From the NCBI RefSeq assembly GCF_003334315.1, contig NZ_QOWR01000001.1: a stretch of DNA of 64,000 bases. One strand, 5' to 3'. The notes beneath the pieces were generated by a model. That model saw nothing but the letters and a program-made list of their open reading frames with translations. It had not been told where the DNA came from and ran no database searches. The stretch comes from Escherichia coli (lineage in GTDB: Bacteria > Pseudomonadota > Gammaproteobacteria > Enterobacterales > Enterobacteriaceae). Of this stretch, positions 11,248 through 44,631 are shown one piece after another. The position numbers and the translations under genes are program-made. Each line of letters starts with the position of its first letter. Within the stretch, counting starts at the first letter, position 1.

Positions 11248-11263
11248 ATGTTACCCGTATCAT
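11248..11263. promoter_or_regulatory. GntR-operator-like site upstream of gntT (distal)
   Basis: ATGTTACCCGTATCAT, same half-site architecture as the gntK operator. Confidence 0.55.
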
Positions 11264-11385: not shown

Positions 11386-11402
11386 TTGACGTTACCCATA
11401 AC
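11386..11402. promoter_or_regulatory. GntR-operator-like site upstream of gntT (proximal)
   Basis: TGACGTTACCCATAACA about 25 nt upstream of the gntT start. Confidence 0.5.
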
Positions 11403-11423
11403 AAATAAAAGGCCAGGTAAATC

Positions 11424-12740
11424 ATGCCATTAGTCATTGTTGCTATCGGTGTAATCTTGTTGTTGCTCCTGATGATCCGCTTCAAAATGAACGGCTTCAT
11501 CGCTCTCGTCCTCGTGGCGCTTGCTGTTGGATTAATGCAAGGAATGCCGCTGGATAAAGTTATTGGCTCCATCAAAGCCGGTGTCGGCGGGACGCTCGGT
11601 AGCCTTGCCCTGATCATGGGTTTTGGCGCAATGCTGGGCAAAATGCTGGCAGACTGCGGTGGCGCACAACGTATCGCCACCACGCTGATTGCCAAATTTG
11701 GTAAAAAACACATCCAGTGGGCGGTGGTACTGACCGGTTTTACCGTTGGTTTTGCCCTGTTCTATGAAGTGGGCTTTGTGCTGATGCTGCCGCTGGTGTT
11801 TACCATCGCGGCTTCTGCGAATATTCCACTGCTGTATGTTGGTGTACCAATGGCAGCTGCACTGTCTGTGACCCACGGCTTCCTGCCACCGCATCCGGGT
11901 CCGACTGCGATTGCCACCATTTTCAATGCCGATATGGGTAAAACCCTGCTGTACGGTACTATTCTGGCAATCCCGACCGTGATTCTCGCCGGTCCGGTTT
12001 ACGCTCGCGTGTTGAAAGGTATCGATAAGCCAATTCCGGAAGGTCTCTACAGCGCGAAAACCTTCAGTGAAGAAGAGATGCCGAGCTTTGGCGTCAGCGT
12101 CTGGACCTCTCTGGTGCCGGTAGTACTGATGGCGATGCGTGCGATTGCCGAAATGATCCTGCCGAAAGGTCACGCTTTCCTGCCGGTAGCGGAGTTCCTC
12201 GGTGACCCGGTAATGGCTACGCTGATTGCCGTGCTGATTGCGATGTTCACCTTTGGTCTAAACCGTGGTCGTTCAATGGATCAGATTAACGACACGCTGG
12301 TTTCTTCCATCAAAATCATTGCGATGATGCTGTTGATCATCGGTGGTGGCGGTGCGTTCAAGCAGGTGCTGGTAGACAGCGGCGTGGACAAATACATTGC
12401 TTCCATGATGCACGAAACCAACATTTCTCCGCTGCTGATGGCCTGGTCGATTGCTGCCGTACTGCGTATCGCGCTGGGTTCCGCAACCGTTGCGGCAATC
12501 ACTGCGGGTGGTATCGCGGCACCGCTGATTGCAACGACGGGTGTTAGCCCGGAGCTGATGGTTATTGCGGTTGGTTCCGGTAGTGTGATTTTCTCTCATG
12601 TGAACGATCCGGGCTTCTGGCTGTTCAAAGAGTACTTTAACCTGACTATCGGCGAGACCATCAAATCCTGGTCGATGCTGGAAACCATTATCTCGGTGTG
12701 CGGTCTGGTAGGCTGTCTGCTGCTGAATATGGTGATTTGA
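11424..12740 (+). CDS. gntT: High-affinity gluconate transporter GntT (GntP family)
   Basis: 438-aa polytopic ORF; paralogous to gntU in this window. Confidence 0.94.
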   Translation: MPLVIVAIGVILLLLLMIRFKMNGFIALVLVALAVGLMQGMPLDKVIGSIKAGVGGTLGSLALIMGFGAMLGKMLADCGGAQRIATTLIAKFGKKHIQWAVVLTGFTVGFALFYEVGFVLMLPLVFTIAASANIPLLYVGVPMAAALSVTHGFLPPHPGPTAIATIFNADMGKTLLYGTILAIPTVILAGPVYARVLKGIDKPIPEGLYSAKTFSEEEMPSFGVSVWTSLVPVVLMAMRAIAEMILPKGHAFLPVAEFLGDPVMATLIAVLIAMFTFGLNRGRSMDQINDTLVSSIKIIAMMLLIIGGGGAFKQVLVDSGVDKYIASMMHETNISPLLMAWSIAAVLRIALGSATVAAITAGGIAAPLIATTGVSPELMVIAVGSGSVIFSHVNDPGFWLFKEYFNLTIGETIKSWSMLETIISVCGLVGCLLLNMVI

Positions 12741-36184: not shown

Positions 36185-38367
36185 TCTGCCTCCCGAACCA
36201 GCCAGATAGTGGCCAGCGGTGGTAGCGTCAGGCTTAGTGAATGCTGACGACCGTGGCTGGCAATCTCATCGCTGTGTACCGTGCCGCCATTGCCTGCATT
36301 ACTGCCGTGATAGTGCATGGAATCGGTATTGAGGATTTCACGCCATTTGCCCGGCTGGTTTATGCCGAAGCGATAATCATGACGCGGTACCGGCGTAAAG
36401 TTACTGGCAACGATGATTTCGTTACCCTCTTTATCGCGACGCACAAAGATCAGCACCGAGCGTTCTTTGTCATCCACCACCAGCCATTCAAAGCCGTACG
36501 GGTCAAAATCCAGTTCATGCATTGCTTTATGGTGGCGGTAGGTGAGGTTCAGATCGCGCACCAGACGCTGGACACCGTGGTGCCAGTTATCGCCGCCTTC
36601 CAACAGATGCCAGTCGAGGCTGGCGTCATGGTTCCACTCGCGGCCCTGGGCAAATTCGTTACCCATGAACAGTAGTTTCTTGCCCGGGAATGCCCACATC
36701 CAGCCATAGTAGGCGCGCAGGTTCGCGAATTTCTGCCATGCGTCGCCCGGCATGCGGTCGAGAATCGATTTTTTACCGTGGACCACTTCATCATGCGACA
36801 ACGGCAGGACGAAGTTTTCAGTGTAGTTGTAGAGAATCCCGAAGGTCAGTTTATCGTGATGATACTGACGATAAACCGGGTCGAGCTTCATGTAGTCCAG
36901 GGTGTCATGCATCCAGCCGAGGTTCCACTTGTACCAGAAGCCCAGACCGCCCATATCCTGCGGACGAGAAACGCCAGGGAAATCGGTAGACTCCTCAGCC
37001 ATTGTCACCGCACCGGAAACCTGCTCACCAAGAATACGGTTGGTATTACGCAAGAATTCAATCGCTTCAAGATTCTCGCGCCCGCCAAATTCGTTCGGGA
37101 TCCACTCCCCCTCTTTACGGCTGTAGTCGCGATAAATCATTGACGCCACCGCATCGACGCGCAGCGCATCAATACCAAAACGTTCAATCCAGTAAAGCGC
37201 GTTACCGACGAGGAAGTTACTGACTTCACGGCGACCATAGTTGTAGATCAGCGTGTTCCAGTCCTGATGATAGCCTTCACGCGGATCGCTGTGTTCATAC
37301 AAGTTCGTGCCATCAAATTCGGCAAGCGCAAAGTCATCAGTCGGGAAGTGGCCTGGCACCCAGTCGAGAATCACGTTCAGACCAGCTGCGTGTGCGGCAT
37401 CAATGAAATAACGGAAGTCGTCGCGAGTACCAAAACGGCGGGTTGGCGCATACAGGCCGGTTGGCTGATAACCCCAACTGCCATCGAAGGGATGCTCGTT
37501 AATGGGCAGTAGTTCGAGGTGGGTAAAGCCCATCCATTTAGCATAAGGCACCAGTTGATCGGCCAGCTCGCGGTAGCTCAACCAGAAATTGTTGTCGGTG
37601 TGGCGACGCCAGGAACCCAGGTGAACTTCATAAATAGAGATTGGCGCATCAAACTGATTCGCTTTTTTGCGCTCTTCAGTCTGTACAACCTTTTCCGGCA
37701 GCCCGCAAATAAGAGACGCGGTTTCCGGGCGCATTTGCGCTTCAAAGGCATAAGGGTCGGACTTCAGACGCAAGTTGCCATTGGCATCAATCATCTCGTA
37801 TTTATAGAGCTGACCGTTATGCGCCCCAGGGATAAACAGTTCCCAGATGCCGCTCTCTTTACGCAGGCGCATCGGGTGACGGCGACCGTCCCAGTAGTTG
37901 AATTGCCCAACCACCGAGACCCGACGGGCGTTTGGAGCCCAGACAGAGAAACGCGTACCTGTGACGCCATCCATAGTATCTGCATGCGCGCCTAAGGTTT
38001 CATACGGGCGCAGGTGAGTACCTTCAGATAATAGCCAGGCATCCATTTCCTGGATTAGCGGACCAAAACGGTAAGGATCATCAATCAGGTTTTGCTGACC
38101 ATGCCAGACAACAGCCAACTGATAGCGGAAAAAATTCTTACGTCGCGGAATGACGCCGCTAAAGAATCCCCGTGAGTCGAGACACTCCAGTTTTGCGAGT
38201 TTGCGCCCGGTTTTCGGTTCAATCACCCACACATCGGTAGCGTCGGGTAAAAGGGCACGGACTTCCAGTCCCGCGGTGGTTTTATGCATTCCCAGTACGG
38301 AAAAAGGATCCGCAAAATGGCCTGCAATTAGCGCGTTAATCACGTCTCTATCGATACGATCGGACAT
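36181..38367 (-). CDS. glgB: 1,4-alpha-glucan branching enzyme GlgB
   Basis: 728-aa ORF; 4-nt overlap with glgX start. Confidence 0.96.
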
Positions 38368-38639
38368 GCTTGTCTTCCTGTTTTATTGTGTCACCCCATC
38401 CAATTGGATTTTTGACTTCTGGTTGTGACATTTTTTTGACCTGAACGGCGCAGCACTCTGTGCATCCTCTCTGCGTCGTCCTCACTTCAGGTAAGGCTGT
38501 GAATACTCATGTATTCAGCCACCCTTAAAGAATAGCCAATGCTCTATTTAACTCCCGGTAAATCATGAAACATCTGCGCTTACTCCTGTATTACGCACTA
38601 ACAGGGGCGGCATCGCGCCCCAGATTTAATGAATAAAGA

Positions 38640-39743
38640 TTACGCCAGTTGACGAAGCATCCGACGCAGCGGCTCCGCGGCCCCCCACAGCAGCTGGTCG
38701 CCCACTGTAAAGGCTGACAGGAACTCTGGTCCCATATTCAGCTTACGCAGGCGGCCTACCGGCGTGGTCAGCGTGCCGGTAACGGCAGCTGGGGTTAGCT
38801 CACGCATAGTGATTTCCCGATCGTTCGGAACGACTTTCGCCCACGGATTGTGCGCAGCCAGCAGTTCTTCCACGGTCGGAATAGACACATCTTTTTTCAA
38901 TTTAATAGTGAATGCCTGGCTGTGGCAGCGCAATGCCCCGACACGCACACATAAACCATCTACCGGAATTACGGAAGATGTGTTGAGGATCTTGTTGGTT
39001 TCCGCCTGCCCTTTCCACTCTTCGCGGCTCTGACCGTTATCGAGCTGTTTGTCGATCCACGGAATCAGGCTACCCGCCAGCGGCACGCCAAAGTTATCCA
39101 CCGGCAGCTCACCGCTACGGGTTAAGGTTGTGACTTTGCGTTCGATATCGAGAATAGCAGAGGACGGGGTCGCGAGTTCATCTGCCACATGGCCATACAG
39201 ATGGCCCATCTGGGTTAATAACTCACGCATATGTCGCGCACCACCGCCGGAAGCGGCCTGGTAGGTTGCAACGGACACCCAATCAACAAGATCATTGGCG
39301 AATAAACCACCCAACGACATCAACATCAGGCTTACGGTACAGTTACCGCCAACAAAAGTCCTGATGCCATTATTTAATCCGTCGGTAATGACGTCCTGAT
39401 TGACGGGGTCAAGAATGATGATGGCGTCATCTTTCATGCGCAGAGACGATGCTGCGTCAATCCAGTAACCTTGCCATCCGCTTTCACGAAGCTTTGGATA
39501 GATTTCGTTGGTATAATCGCCGCCCTGACAGGTCACAATGATATCGAGGGCCTTTAGCGCCTCCAGATCAAAGGCATCCTGAAGTGTGCCAGTGGTTCCG
39601 CCAAAAGACGGCGCAGCCTGGCCAAGCTGAGAAGTAGAAAAGAAGACAGGGCGAATGGCGTCGAAGTCGCGCTCTTCAACCATGCGTTGCATGAGAACGG
39701 AGCCGACCATACCGCGCCAGCCGATAAAACCAACATTTTTCAT
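38640..39743 (-). CDS. asd: Aspartate-semialdehyde dehydrogenase Asd
   Basis: Track ORF 38640..39803; recognised start [21 protein letters not shown]... Confidence 0.95.
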
Positions 39744-39934
39744 AAGCGTTTTTTCCTGCAAAGATGTGTGCTGTATAAATGTGCCGGTCTCCTCTTGGCA
39801 CATCTTTCACCATACAAAAAGCAGCCAAAGTCGCAAGTGAAATTAATCAATGATAGCGAAGCCATCAGTAATGCGACTTATCCTGCTTTGTTAGCACGCA
39901 GAAAGTCCGCGGCAATTATCAGGGAATTTGAGTT

Positions 39935-40528
39935 ATGAATGAAATCATTTCTGCAGCAGTTTTATTGATCCTGATTATGGATCCGCTCGGAAACCTACCT
40001 ATTTTCATGTCCGTACTGAAACATACTGAACCGAAAAGACGGCGGGCAATCATGGTGCGAGAGTTGCTTATTGCTCTCCTGGTGATGCTGGTGTTCCTGT
40101 TTGCGGGTGAGAAAATTCTGGCATTTCTCAGCCTGCGAGCAGAAACCGTCTCCATTTCTGGCGGCATCATTCTGTTTCTGATCGCCATTAAGATGATTTT
40201 CCCCAGCGCTTCAGGAAATAGCAGCGGGCTTCCTGCAGGTGAAGAGCCATTTATCGTGCCGTTGGCAATTCCGTTAGTCGCCGGGCCGACTATTCTCGCC
40301 ACGCTGATGTTGTTGTCTCATCAGTACCCGAATCAGATGGGGCATCTGGTGATTGCTCTGCTGCTGGCCTGGGGCGGCACCTTTGTCATCCTGCTACAGT
40401 CTTCGCTATTTTTACGTCTGCTGGGCGAGAAAGGGGTGAACGCACTTGAACGCCTGATGGGATTGATTCTGGTGATGATGGCAACCCAGATGTTCCTCGA
40501 CGGCATTCGAATGTGGATGAAGGGGTAA
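39935..40528 (+). CDS. yhgN: MarC-family inner membrane protein YhgN
   Basis: 197-aa hydrophobic ORF MNEIISAAVLLILIMDPLGNLPIFMSVL... Confidence 0.88.
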   Translation: MNEIISAAVLLILIMDPLGNLPIFMSVLKHTEPKRRRAIMVRELLIALLVMLVFLFAGEKILAFLSLRAETVSISGGIILFLIAIKMIFPSASGNSSGLPAGEEPFIVPLAIPLVAGPTILATLMLLSHQYPNQMGHLVIALLLAWGGTFVILLQSSLFLRLLGEKGVNALERLMGLILVMMATQMFLDGIRMWMKG

Positions 40529-40584
40529 CGAGGAGAGTTTTTCGAAAAGAACCCGGTAGCGTCACAACTACCGGGCGAACAAAC

Positions 40585-41925
40585 TTAACTCAACAGCTGG
40601 AACGCAATCATCCCAACGATGGCACCGACAGTGCCGAGAATGGTTTCCATCATGGTCCAGGTTTTCAGCGTTTCGGCTTCGGTCGCGCCGGTAAATTTAC
40701 CGAACAACCAGAAACCAGCGTCGTTAACGTGGCTGACAACAATCGAACCACCAGCGATACAAATCGACAGTGCCGCCATTTGCGCACCAGAGTAGTTCAG
40801 TTGTTCAATGACTGGCATCACCAGTCCCACCGCCGTTAAACAGGCTACGGTGGCAGACCCCTGAATGATGCGCACTGCAGCGGCCAGCACGAAGCAGGTG
40901 ATAGCAATCGGCAGGCCCATGCCGGTTAACGCTTCGCCCAGTGCCGGACCTACGCCAGAGTCAACCAGCACCTGTTTGAACACGCCGCCCGCACCAATCA
41001 CCAGCAGAATGATCCCCGCCGGTTGCAGCGCGTGACCGCAAATCTCCATCACTTTGTCTTTTGGCATGCCCTGACGCATCGCCAGGCCATAAATCGCCAC
41101 CAGACAAGCAACCAGAATCGCGGTAAACGGATGACCAATAAACTCGAACCATTCGTAAGCGGTAGAGCCTTCTGGCACAAAACGCGCGGCAATGGTTTTC
41201 AGCCCCACCAGCACCAGCGGCAACAGGATCAGCGACAGGCTGAATCCGAAGGACGGCATTTTGCCTTCGCCGAGATGCGGTTCGCTGATGTCGTCAGGAA
41301 TATGCAACTCCACGTAACGGCTGATGAAATTACCCCACAGCGGCCCGGCAATAATCATTCCCGGAATTGCCGCACACAGGCCAATCAGGATCATCCAGCC
41401 AAAATCGGCGTTCATCTGCGATGCCAGCAGCATTGGCGCTGGCCCTGGCACCAGGAACGCCGCCGCTGCCGCCACGCCTGCGAATAATGGGATTACCAGC
41501 TTCACCAGGTTCGTACCGGTGTGGCGCGCCATTGAGAAAGCAACGCTAATCAGCAGAACAATCGCCACTTCAAAGAACAGCGGTAGCGCACAGACCAGCC
41601 CCGCAAGGCCGATGGCATAATGCGCGCGGCTGTGACCGAAGGATTTGAGCATTTTGACGGCAATCTGATCGACTGCGCCGGTTTCATGTAAGATCTTGCC
41701 AAACATAGCTCCCAGGGCGACAACCACCGCCAGGAAGCCGAGGGTGCCTCCCATCCCTTTTTCCATCGTCGCTGCGATTTTATCGAGCGGCATACCGGAA
41801 AAAAGGCCAGCCCCCATGGACACCACCATTAAAGCCAGGAAAGCGTGCATACGCGCCTTCATGACTAAAAACAGCAGCAGTAAAACAGACCCTACTGCTG
41901 TTAAAACAAGCGTTAATGTAGTCAC
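40585..41925 (-). CDS. gntU: Low-affinity gluconate transporter GntU (GntP family)
   Basis: 446-aa polytopic ORF; paralog of gntT. Confidence 0.93.
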   Translation of the reverse strand: MTTLTLVLTAVGSVLLLLFLVMKARMHAFLALMVVSMGAGLFSGMPLDKIAATMEKGMGGTLGFLAVVVALGAMFGKILHETGAVDQIAVKMLKSFGHSRAHYAIGLAGLVCALPLFFEVAIVLLISVAFSMARHTGTNLVKLVIPLFAGVAAAAAFLVPGPAPMLLASQMNADFGWMILIGLCAAIPGMIIAGPLWGNFISRYVELHIPDDISEPHLGEGKMPSFGFSLSLILLPLVLVGLKTIAARFVPEGSTAYEWFEFIGHPFTAILVACLVAIYGLAMRQGMPKDKVMEICGHALQPAGIILLVIGAGGVFKQVLVDSGVGPALGEALTGMGLPIAITCFVLAAAVRIIQGSATVACLTAVGLVMPVIEQLNYSGAQMAALSICIAGGSIVVSHVNDAGFWLFGKFTGATEAETLKTWTMMETILGTVGAIVGMIAFQLLS

Positions 41926-41928
41926 TAC

Positions 41929-42456
41929 TTATTTGCCTTTTTTAATAACCTCAATGGTGCTTGCCACAACACCTTCCAGCGGTTGATCGATATCCACCAC
42001 CAGTACATCAGTTTCGTCCGCACCCGGCTCCTGCAGCGTTTCAAACTGCGTCACCAACATTTGGGTTTTAAAGAAATGGCCTTTGCGCGCTTTCAGGCGG
42101 CTTTCAATCACGTCAAAATCGCCTTTCAGGTAGATGAAAGAGAGATTCGGATTACCTTCACGCAGCAAGTCGCGATAGTGTTTTTTCAATGCAGAACAGA
42201 CGATCAGTGACACTTTATTAGTGCGCTGCATAGCAAACGCGGCGTCGTTCAGCGCCTGCAACCAGGGTTTGCGATCGTCGTCATTCAGCGGTTCGCCAGA
42301 CGCCATTTTTTCGATATTGCGCCGTGGATGGAGGAAATCGCCATCAAGAAACGCGGCATGAAGTTGATGCGCCACTTCACTGGCGACCGCAGATTTGCCG
42401 CTGCCCGATACGCCCATCAAGACGTAAATGTGGTGATCATGGTTAGTCGTGCTCAA
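41929..42456 (-). CDS. gntK: Thermoresistant gluconokinase GntK
   Basis: Track ORF 41929..42477; P-loop GVSGSGKS; start set at the codon giving MSTTNHDHHIYVLMG (non-ATG), so start is uncertain. Confidence 0.88.
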   Translation of the reverse strand: MSTTNHDHHIYVLMGVSGSGKSAVASEVAHQLHAAFLDGDFLHPRRNIEKMASGEPLNDDDRKPWLQALNDAAFAMQRTNKVSLIVCSALKKHYRDLLREGNPNLSFIYLKGDFDVIESRLKARKGHFFKTQMLVTQFETLQEPGADETDVLVVDIDQPLEGVVASTIEVIKKGK

Positions 42457-42486
42457 AGTGGTGCCCCCACAATACAAGAATTAAAA

Positions 42487-42515
42487 ATGTTACGGGTAAC
42501 TGTTATCGGTAACAT
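42487..42515. promoter_or_regulatory. GntR operator upstream of gntK
   Basis: ATGTTACGGGTAAC-TGTTATCGGTAACAT, two overlapping ATGTTA/TAACAT-type half-site pairs between gntR and gntK. Confidence 0.7.
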
Positions 42516-42594
42516 TGTCCAGCCGGACAATATCAGAAGCAATATCCATCCGTGCCTTAAGTGTATAAGTGTGAGCTACTTCAAATTTGTAGGC

Positions 42595-43590
42595 TTAAAT
42601 AGATCCGCCCGGTGACAAGGTGAAACCTAAATCTAACATTTTCGGTGTCACAGATTCGCCACGAATACGCGCCAGCAGGCGTTCAGCGCCAATACTGCCC
42701 ATCCGCTCACGCGGCGTCAGTACGCTCGCCAACCGTGGTTCCATCACCTGACCAATGTCATGACCGTGGAAACCGGCAATCGCCATATCGTCAGGAACTT
42801 TTAACCCCAGACGCTGGCATTCAAACGCCGCGCCGACCGCCAGGTCATCATTAGTACAGAACACGCCATCCAGCTGCGGATATTCCCGCCTCGCCTGGCG
42901 AATCAGTTCAATACCGGAAGAGTAAGAAGAAGATTGCTCAACCATCACGCTATATGGCACCAGGTCTGCATCCAGCATCGCCTGTTCGTATCCCTTCTGT
43001 TTGATGATAGTACGTTCGTCGAGACGTGCGCCGAGATAAGCAATGTGGCGATGCCCGCGAGCAATAATGGCGGTGGTCATCTGGCGTGCCGCTTCAAAGT
43101 TATCAAAACCGACGGCAATATCGAGGCACGGCGACTTGCTGTCCATCAACTCCACCACCGGGATCCCCGCCACTTCAATCATCTTTAAGGTGCGTGGCGT
43201 GTGAGTACGTTCGGTGAGGATCAGTCCGTCGATATTCCATGAGAGCATGGATTCGAGACGTTCTTGCTCCATTTCCGGTTTATAACCGTAGTGAGCCAGC
43301 ATGGTCTGATAACCGTGCGCGTCGGTGACGCTTTCGATTCCGCGTAATACTTCCGCGAAAACCTGGTTGGTGAGAGAAGGTAACAGGACGCCAATCGCCC
43401 GGCTGGTGGCGTTAGAGAGGATATCGGGCGCACGATTGGGAATATAGCCCAGTTCATCAAGAGCCGCGGCAATCTTGCCGCGTAGAGCGACGGAAACCTG
43501 CTCCGGGTTGCGTAAAAAACGGCTGACCGTCATTTTGGTCACGCCTACACGGTCAGCCACATCCTGAAGTACGGGTCTTTTCTTTTTCAT
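42595..43590 (-). CDS. gntR: LacI-family gluconate repressor GntR
   Basis: 331-aa ORF MKKKRPVLQDVADRVGVTKMTVSRFLRNP... (LacI HTH). Confidence 0.95.
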   Translation of the reverse strand: MKKKRPVLQDVADRVGVTKMTVSRFLRNPEQVSVALRGKIAAALDELGYIPNRAPDILSNATSRAIGVLLPSLTNQVFAEVLRGIESVTDAHGYQTMLAHYGYKPEMEQERLESMLSWNIDGLILTERTHTPRTLKMIEVAGIPVVELMDSKSPCLDIAVGFDNFEAARQMTTAIIARGHRHIAYLGARLDERTIIKQKGYEQAMLDADLVPYSVMVEQSSSYSSGIELIRQARREYPQLDGVFCTNDDLAVGAAFECQRLGLKVPDDMAIAGFHGHDIGQVMEPRLASVLTPRERMGSIGAERLLARIRGESVTPKMLDLGFTLSPGGSI

Positions 43591-43813
43591 CGTCCTGAAG
43601 GTACAAAAGAGATAGATTCTCTTAGTTTAACACGGACACATCAGAACCTTCCCGGGGAAAACAGTGCTTGTTTACAATTATTAGATATACACTAAATCAA
43701 TTGCATCGCATTGTGCTAACGACGCGGCAAAACCCCGGAAGCGTACATCAGCACGCGACCGGAGCGAGCGAGGAAGCCTGCAAAAAGGCAGGCTTCAAAT
43801 ATGCCGTTGAGTT

Positions 43814-44509
43814 TTAAACCGGCGGCAGATCGAACAGTAACACTTCGCTGTCGCTATCCGCATGGATGGAGATTGCCTGCTCATCCCAGATTGCCAGACC
43901 ATCGCTGGTCGAGGCTTTCACGCCGTTAATGGTGACATTGCCTTTCACCACCTGGATCCAGACGCGGCGTTCAGCGGCAATCTGATGCACCGACTGCTCA
44001 TCTTTCAGCAACGCCCAGCGGTACAGTTCCATATCCTGATGCACTTTCAATGAACCATCTCGCGCATCCGGCGAGAGCACCAGCTGTTTGCCCTGTACGG
44101 CATCGAAGCGACGCTGTTCATAACGCGGCGTAATACCGTTTTCTTCAGGCATGATCCAGATCTGATACAGATGCAGACGCTCGGTGCTGCTTGGGTTGTA
44201 CTCTGAGTGACGAATACCCGTACCAGCACTCATAATCTGGAACTCACCCGCCGGAACCTGCTCTTTATTGCCCATGCTGTCCTGATGCTCAACAGTACCT
44301 TCCAGCACGTAGGTCAAAATTTCCATATCTTTATGCGGGTGAGTGCCGAAGCCCTGCCCTGCTTCAATCACGTCGTCGTTAATCACGCGCAGCGCGGAGA
44401 AGCCCATAAAGTTCGGATCGTAATAGTTGGCAAAAGAGAAAGTATGCCAGGAGTCCAGCCAGCCATGATTTGCATGACCACGTTCATTTGCTTTGCGTAA
44501 GTAGATCAT
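43814..44509 (-). CDS. yhhW: Pirin-like cupin (quercetin 2,3-dioxygenase) YhhW
   Basis: 231-aa ORF MIYLRKANERGHANHGWLDSWHTFSF... Confidence 0.92.
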   Translation of the reverse strand: MIYLRKANERGHANHGWLDSWHTFSFANYYDPNFMGFSALRVINDDVIEAGQGFGTHPHKDMEILTYVLEGTVEHQDSMGNKEQVPAGEFQIMSAGTGIRHSEYNPSSTERLHLYQIWIMPEENGITPRYEQRRFDAVQGKQLVLSPDARDGSLKVHQDMELYRWALLKDEQSVHQIAAERRVWIQVVKGNVTINGVKASTSDGLAIWDEQAISIHADSDSEVLLFDLPPV

Positions 44510-44571
44510 TTGTATTCGCCCCCTGAATGATTTCGATGGGCTTAGTGTGGACCCGATCTGCCTGGGATGAT

Positions 44572-44625
44572 AGAGGGTGAAAATTGACCCCTCTGTTCAA
44601 AAAAATTGAACTATTCGAGGGGCCA
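44572..44625 (-). terminator. Nested inverted repeats just 3' of yhhX
   Basis: AGAGGGT/ACCCCTC and CCCCTC/GAGGGG arms sharing the CCCCTC segment, loop TTCAAAAAAATTGAA. Confidence 0.45.
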
Positions 44626-44631
44626 TCAAAC

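Follow-up and report, generated by a model that had tools for sequence, protein, structure and literature searches.

Two fused GntR dyads as the very probable double operator of the gntKU promoter in Escherichia coli

Background

The intergenic region between gntR and gntK of E. coli contains two near-palindromic sequences in direct succession, which raises the question whether they serve as a double operator for the gluconate repressor GntR, how the two sites are arranged with respect to each other and to the promoter, and whether both could be occupied at the same time. An earlier, sequence-only reading had claimed tandem GntR operators directly upstream of gntK. This claim was followed up by computational analysis of the window, i.e., the whole stretch of chromosomal E. 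coli DNA under study (64 kb). Positions refer to this stretch unless stated otherwise, and the features discussed are compiled in Table 1.

Table 1 Features of the gntKU control region and GntR sites of other operons
Feature	Position	Strand	Description
GntR operator O1 (promoter-proximal)	42500..42515	(-)	ATGTTACCGATAACAG on gene strand, central CG; 2 mismatches to ATGTTACCNGTAACAT
GntR operator O2 (downstream)	42487..42502	(-)	CAGTTACCCGTAACAT on gene strand; 2 mismatches to ATGTTACCNGTAACAT
Composite palindrome O1 + O2	42486..42516	none	31 bp, 13/15 pairs complementary, centre base 42501
Predicted -10 hexamer GACAAT of gntKU promoter	42514..42519	(-)	17 bp from TTGCTT, conserved; last two bases are the first two of O1
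Predicted -35 hexamer TTGCTT of gntKU promoter	42537..42542	(-)	Within conserved ATTGCTT block at fixed, gap-free distance from the operators
CRP-cAMP site	42567..42588	(-)	AAATTTGAAGTAGCTCACACTT, centre 42577.5; TTTGA-N6-TCACA core conserved; listed for gntKU in Price et al. 2008
gntR	42595..43590	(-)	LacI-family gluconate repressor reading the operators; NF011563, 775 bits vs cut-off 433; Pfam LacI HTH + Peripla_BP
gntK	41929..42456	(-)	Gluconokinase, TTG start; first gene under the operators; NCBIfam equivalog match
gntU	40585..41925	(-)	Low-affinity gluconate transporter; second gene of the gntKU unit; NCBIfam equivalog match
gntT sites	11248-11263; 11389-11404	(+)	ATGTTACCCGTATCAT; ACGTTACCCATAACAA; 141 bp apart, upstream of ORF 11424-12740
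edd sites (K-12)	L082 3078-3093; 3300-3315		ATTTTACCGGTAACAT, upstream; TTGTTACGCGTAACAA, inside gene; 222 bp apart
idnK/idnD spacer site (K-12)			ATGTTACGCATAACGT; single site

Gene context and regulator family

The genes gntR, gntK and gntU are all located on the minus strand of the window, and their products (GntR, gluconokinase and gluconate transporter) score well above the curated cut-offs of the respective NCBIfam equivalog models. The element lies between the stop codon of gntR (42597..42595) and the TTG start codon of gntK (42456..42454), both on the minus strand. A stretch of 451 bases around the site was found in 5425 of 5426 complete E. coli genomes, always on the chromosome and annotated with gntK and gntR; it is 100 % identical to that of E. 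coli strain 504239, and strain K-12 has an identical operator block. In case of K-12, the gene order is asd-yhgN-gntU-gntK-gntR-yhhW-yhhX-ryhB-yhhY. In the window, the small RNA RyhB (Rfam RF00057, 83 bits) is encoded at 45787-45851 on the minus strand between yhhX and yhhY. The context of the TTG start of gntK (42454-42456, minus strand), CTTTGAGCACGACTAA, is invariant in eight aligned genomes.

Despite its name, E. coli GntR is a LacI/GalR-family repressor and not a member of the GntR family. A Pfam scan of the protein yielded only a LacI domain (PF00356) and Peripla_BP_1/3/4, and the GntR-type winged helix (PF00392), which was looked for in the same scan, is absent; this domain composition points to an operator of the LacI type. 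The nearest solved relatives of GntR are LacI-family proteins (3h5o, CcpA, PurR and LacI). Comparison with the PurR-purF operator (1PNR), CcpA-cre and LacI-O1 reveals the same layout, i.e., a 16-bp dyad with a central C-G/C-C step and a dimer with helix-turn-helix and hinge helix, and GntR aligns with these regulators over its full length. With GntR-family (PF00392) regulators such as B. subtilis GntR or FadR, it has only the name and the gluconate theme in common.

Sequence and geometry of the double operator

On the plus strand, ATGTTACGGGTAAC (42487-42500) is immediately followed by TGTTATCGGTAACAT (42501-42515). Both sequences are thus present exactly as previously read, one abutting the other, between gntR and gntK. 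Their designation as tandem overlapping dyads is also correct, but their delineation as a 14-mer and a 15-mer placed back to back is not: the real units are two 16-mers, O1 and O2, which have 3 bp (42500-42502) in common and whose centres (42507.5 and 42494.5) are offset by 13 bp. Both are even inverted repeats with a 2-bp centre (CG or CC), reading GTTAC-CG-ATAAC and GTTAC-CC-GTAAC, with 5 of 8 complementary pairs in O2 (42487-42502) and 6 of 8 in O1 (42500-42515). In each dyad, 2 of the 15 specified bases of the 16-bp GntR consensus ATGTTACC-N-GTAACAT are mismatched. The repeat finder recorded the arrangement as a direct repeat of 13 nt with 13-nt spacing (D1) and as an inverted repeat of 31 bp (I1, 42486-42516), the 15-nt arms of which are 87 % complementary and separated by one base.

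The centre base 42501 represents position 7 of both inner half-sites, read from opposite strands. An A at this position provides the consensus T for O1, and a T provides it for O2, so that the consensus is never reached in both dyads at once. The 5-bp cores of the inner half-sites (ATAAC and GTTAC) do not overlap.

Occurrence of the motif in the window and in the gluconate regulon

Within the 64-kb window, no 31-mer other than 42486-42516 reaches 13 of 15 complementary pairs, and dinucleotide-preserving shuffles contained on average 0.067 such palindromes per window. At up to three mismatches, ATGTTACCNGTAACAT gave 8 strand-matches in the window vs 1.12 expected, a 7-fold enrichment, and no shuffle reached 8. 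Two consensus sites of this quality (≤3 mismatches) at a 13-bp offset occurred in none of 300 shuffles. Five positions of the 64 kb carry a site with ≤3 mismatches, namely O1, O2, two sites upstream of gntT and one at 48613. The latter (ATTTTACCCGAATCAT, 48613-48628, plus strand; 3 mismatches to the GntR consensus) has no obvious gluconate gene nearby and is probably a chance match, the expectation being 0.88 such positions per window.

The partner of a 9-bp inverted repeat (I2) at 42634-42642 was considered as a third, distal GntR site that would allow looping, and rejected. Situated inside the gntR coding sequence, it offers no more than an ATGTTA half-site and has ~6 mismatches to the full consensus (counted by hand), a value equalled by hundreds of positions in the window; it was taken as chance.

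The ORF downstream of the two gntT sites (11424-12740) encodes a protein of 438 aa and is located ~31 kb from gntK; its position suggests that it represents gntT. The GntR operators of gntT are reportedly treated by Peekhaus and Conway 1998. The downstream site of edd (TTGTTACGCGTAACAA) is a perfect palindrome situated just within the edd coding sequence. The operators of gntT and edd share the 16-bp motif with gntKU, but their sites are 141 and 222 bp apart and not fused, a geometry compatible with looping or independent binding, unlike the 13-bp fusion at gntKU. No second site with ≤5 mismatches was found at ±13 bp of the gntT, edd and idnK/idnD sites. Among the E. coli sites of gntKU, gntT, edd and idnK/idnD, the fused 13-bp arrangement is specific to gntKU. 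The K-12 idnD-idnK spacer (L083, 3995-4022) harbours a lone TGTTAC half-site exactly 13 bp upstream of the TGTTAC of ATGTTACGCATAACGT; devoid of a second half, it may be a remnant or due to chance.

Phylogenetic footprint

The footprint is based on a scan for GntK with one genome per species, from which the best 80 of 340 relatives were used, all of them Enterobacteriaceae with GntK identities of 90–99 %. The alignment of ~185 nt upstream of gntK comprises these 80 loci and the window's own row (81 sequences, 80 of them distinct). One of the assemblies (L040, CACSKA010000004.1) is titled 'Chryseobacterium sp. 18061'; its gntK is 92 % identical to that of E. coli and thus inside the Enterobacteriaceae range, and the assembly is probably mislabelled or contaminated.

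Three conserved blocks are apparent in the alignment: (i) a CRP-like TTTGA-N6-TCACA, (ii) ATTGCTT and (iii) GACAATGTTACCGATAAC[A/T]GTTACCCGTAACA. The pattern TGTTAC-N3-TAAC-N-GTTAC-N3-TAACA is present exactly in 79 of the 80 species genomes (best 80 of 340 relatives), with the 80th deviating by one base, while the flanking intergenic DNA varies and carries indels, pointing to purifying selection on the site as compared to its flanks. The 13-bp arrangement is kept among the orthologous operons of these Enterobacteriaceae (best 80 of 340 relatives). In the same 80 species genomes, O1 is nearly invariant with isolated substitutions only, and so is the core of O2. Inside the double operator, the shared base 42501 is the only commonly variable one, with A in 48 and T in 31 of the 79 genomes with the strict pattern (best 80 of 340 relatives); at its outer edge, the outermost base of O2 (42487, T or A) also varies commonly, and the other changes in O2 are isolated substitutions.

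From ATTGCTT through the end of O2, no indels occur in the aligned loci (best 80 of 340 relatives). The 17-bp stretch separating TTGCTT from GACAAT varies freely in sequence among the 80 species genomes. In contrast to this indel-free promoter-operator block, the spacing between O2 core and start codon is variable across the same genomes, at 17 to 86 nt (best 80 of 340 relatives), indicating that the operators are fixed relative to the promoter and not to the coding sequence. The distance between operator and gntK (42457-42486 in the window, and equivalents) is 73-86 nt in eleven genomes, and in case of K. michiganensis (L025) an insertion of ~45 nt is located between the operator and the start codon of gntK.

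Promoter and CRP site

The conserved hexamers TTGCTT and GACAAT, 17 bp apart, suggest a sigma-70-like promoter for gntKU. A consensus promoter scan of the gene strand called no promoter at gntKU, probably because TTGCTT matches at three of six positions only; the -35 and -10 assignments thus rest on conservation. The genome-wide start-site supplement of Kim 2012 contains no entry for gntK. An alternative promoter consisting of TTGTCC (42530..42525), a 17-bp spacer and GATAAC (42507..42502) was rejected, as TTGTCC is unconserved outside Escherichia and GATAAC lacks the final T.

Transcription would start ~7 nt past GACAAT, near 42507. With this predicted start, O1 would be centred on ~+1 and overlap the last two bases of the -10 hexamer, and O2 would be centred at ~+13. 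The placement of the dyads directly upstream of gntK, as originally read, is correct with respect to the gntR-gntK intergenic region and is most likely to be refined to the -10/+1/+13 part of the predicted gntKU promoter. Relative to the start site deduced from the conserved hexamers, the CRP site would be centred at ~-70.5, a position usual for class I CRP sites (near -61.5, -71.5, -82.5 or similar). The identical sequence is listed as CRP site of gntKU in Table 2 of Price et al. 2008.

Proposed mechanism and alternative explanations

The element very probably represents the double operator of the gntKU promoter, with two GntR dyads fused at 13 bp over the start region. Gene identities, consensus matches, the motif of the regulon, conservation and the study of Ravcheev et al. 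2014 all support the original assignment as a GntR double operator of gntK. O1 and O2 would each represent the site for one dimer of the LacI-family GntR. In the absence of gluconate, GntR bound to O1 and O2 would sterically block open-complex formation or promoter escape of RNA polymerase; binding of gluconate would release GntR from the element, and CRP-cAMP at ~-70.5 could then activate the promoter. Both dyads would probably be occupied together, with the two dimers ~86 degrees apart round the helix and ~44 Å along it (calculated for 13 bp at 10.5 bp per turn), and this dual occupancy may provide tighter repression than a single site. Since the inner cores do not overlap, simultaneous binding of two dimers to different faces of the helix is plausible. 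To judge from the conservation, both dyads and the exact 13-bp register would be needed.

Two GntR dimers sitting at about right angles on one element of 29-31 bp may represent a distinct binding mode, perhaps involving local unwinding or a dimer-dimer contact absent from the PurR, LacI and CcpA complexes; the A/T toggle at 42501 could then shift the preference between the two dyads or between the paralogues GntR and IdnR. This extension is put forward tentatively and appears rather doubtful.

Alternatively, the dyads could be mutually exclusive and bind one dimer of GntR (or IdnR) at a time, the second register doubling the chance of occupancy or suiting the other paralogue. The 3 bp common to both dyads would agree with such alternation, as would the base 42501, which gives the consensus T to one dyad only and is A or T depending on the species, the use of common sites by GntR and IdnR, and the structural difficulty of placing two dimers at 13 bp stressed by Ravcheev et al. 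2014. However, any overlapping offset would then do, yet the 80 species (best 80 of 340 relatives) all keep 13 bp, and sites of LacI-family regulators in general show a preference for this distance (Ravcheev et al. 2014). Moreover, the constraint is equally strong on all four half-site cores, and the inner cores ATAAC and GTTAC are separate. Both elements reportedly mattered in the mutational analysis of Tsunedomi 2003. Mutual exclusion is considered unlikely, because it leaves the invariant offset unexplained, and joint occupancy of the double operator by two GntR dimers remains the preferred reading.

For transcripts reading through from gntR, it is highly improbable that the 31-bp palindrome together with TTTTT functions as RNA hairpin or intrinsic terminator, be it instead of or besides the protein site. 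On the gene strand, the palindrome precedes TTTTTAATT, and it is located downstream of gntR, as would be fitting for a terminator, but its predicted fold reaches only -5.7 kcal/mol (z-score +0.56), which was equalled or surpassed by 143 of 200 shuffles. No terminator was detected in the scan, a loop of 1 nt is all that the centre of the palindrome permits, and other genera lack the T-run (having ACAATTAACC, ACAATTGACT and similar sequences) while the dyads are invariant. The stable GC-rich hairpin and conserved U-tract of an intrinsic (rho-independent) terminator are thus not apparent. An Rfam scan of 38000-48000 retrieved RyhB only, with no match at the operator.

A functionless chance palindrome in AT-rich intergenic DNA, as the imperfect pairing of each dyad might suggest, has a negligible probability and is ruled out by the shuffle statistics (double site and 7-fold motif enrichment) together with the phylogenetic footprint, the element being nearly invariant across genera while the flanking intergenic DNA has diverged, with indels.

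Relation to known systems

Two GntR-binding elements in the gntKU promoter-operator were reportedly defined by mutational analysis, according to the abstract of the Tsunedomi study, and are said to be targets of GntH/IdnR, too. The element analysed here is the already described double operator of gntKU, and its recognition an ordinary but correct finding. As far as they are described in PMC4052901, the GntR-binding elements of gntKU (Izu et al. 1997 J Mol Biol; Tsunedomi et al. 2003 J Bacteriol 185:1783) correspond to the same locus and sequence without detectable difference. Binding of GntR at gntKU is known from Ravcheev et al. 2014 (PMC4052901), where Tsunedomi et al. 2003 is cited for the overlapping ~13-bp sites upstream of E. 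coli gntKU being experimentally functional. The gntKU elements are thus reported to be common to GntR and its paralogue IdnR/GntH, and binding sites common to GntR and IdnR are independently described in Price et al. 2008.

Overlapping sites of LacI-family regulators ~13 bp apart were found upstream of 110 operons across bacteria, and the family-wide spacing of sites peaks at 13 bp (Ravcheev et al. 2014, PMC4052901). GntR orthologues are the chief example of that study, and the gntKU element likewise consists of two even palindromes with centres 13 bp apart, without difference to the tandem sites described there; a footprint beyond Enterobacteriaceae was also already reported (PMC4052901). According to the same authors, sites at the 13-bp offset overlap within the zone of specific contacts, which is difficult to square with the solved DNA complexes of the LacI family; the known type of contact between dimers is impossible at 13 bp, and they suggested a special binding mode that involves partial unwinding (Ravcheev et al. 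2014, PMC4052901). The structures of PurR (1PNR), CcpA-cre and LacI-O1 contain one dimer per operator, and none of them has two dimers on sites overlapping by 3 bp. No paper reporting a structure in which two LacI-family dimers occupy overlapping operators was retrieved in a literature search.

With respect to what had been read from the sequence, the refinements are supported, i.e., GntR is a LacI-family regulator, the dyads are overlapping 16-mers, and their predicted position is on the start region of the promoter. A real regulatory element is thus recognisable from sequence alone, and the gntKU finding itself adds nothing new: the double operator has been studied by mutation and reused in synthetic biology as a gluconate-responsive promoter. 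The point of wider interest is structural, namely how two LacI-family dimers use dyads with centres 13 bp apart, a puzzle raised in 2014. For this question, the gntKU locus represents a clean model, as its spacing is invariant in 80 species (best 80 of 340 relatives) and toggling is confined to the centre base.
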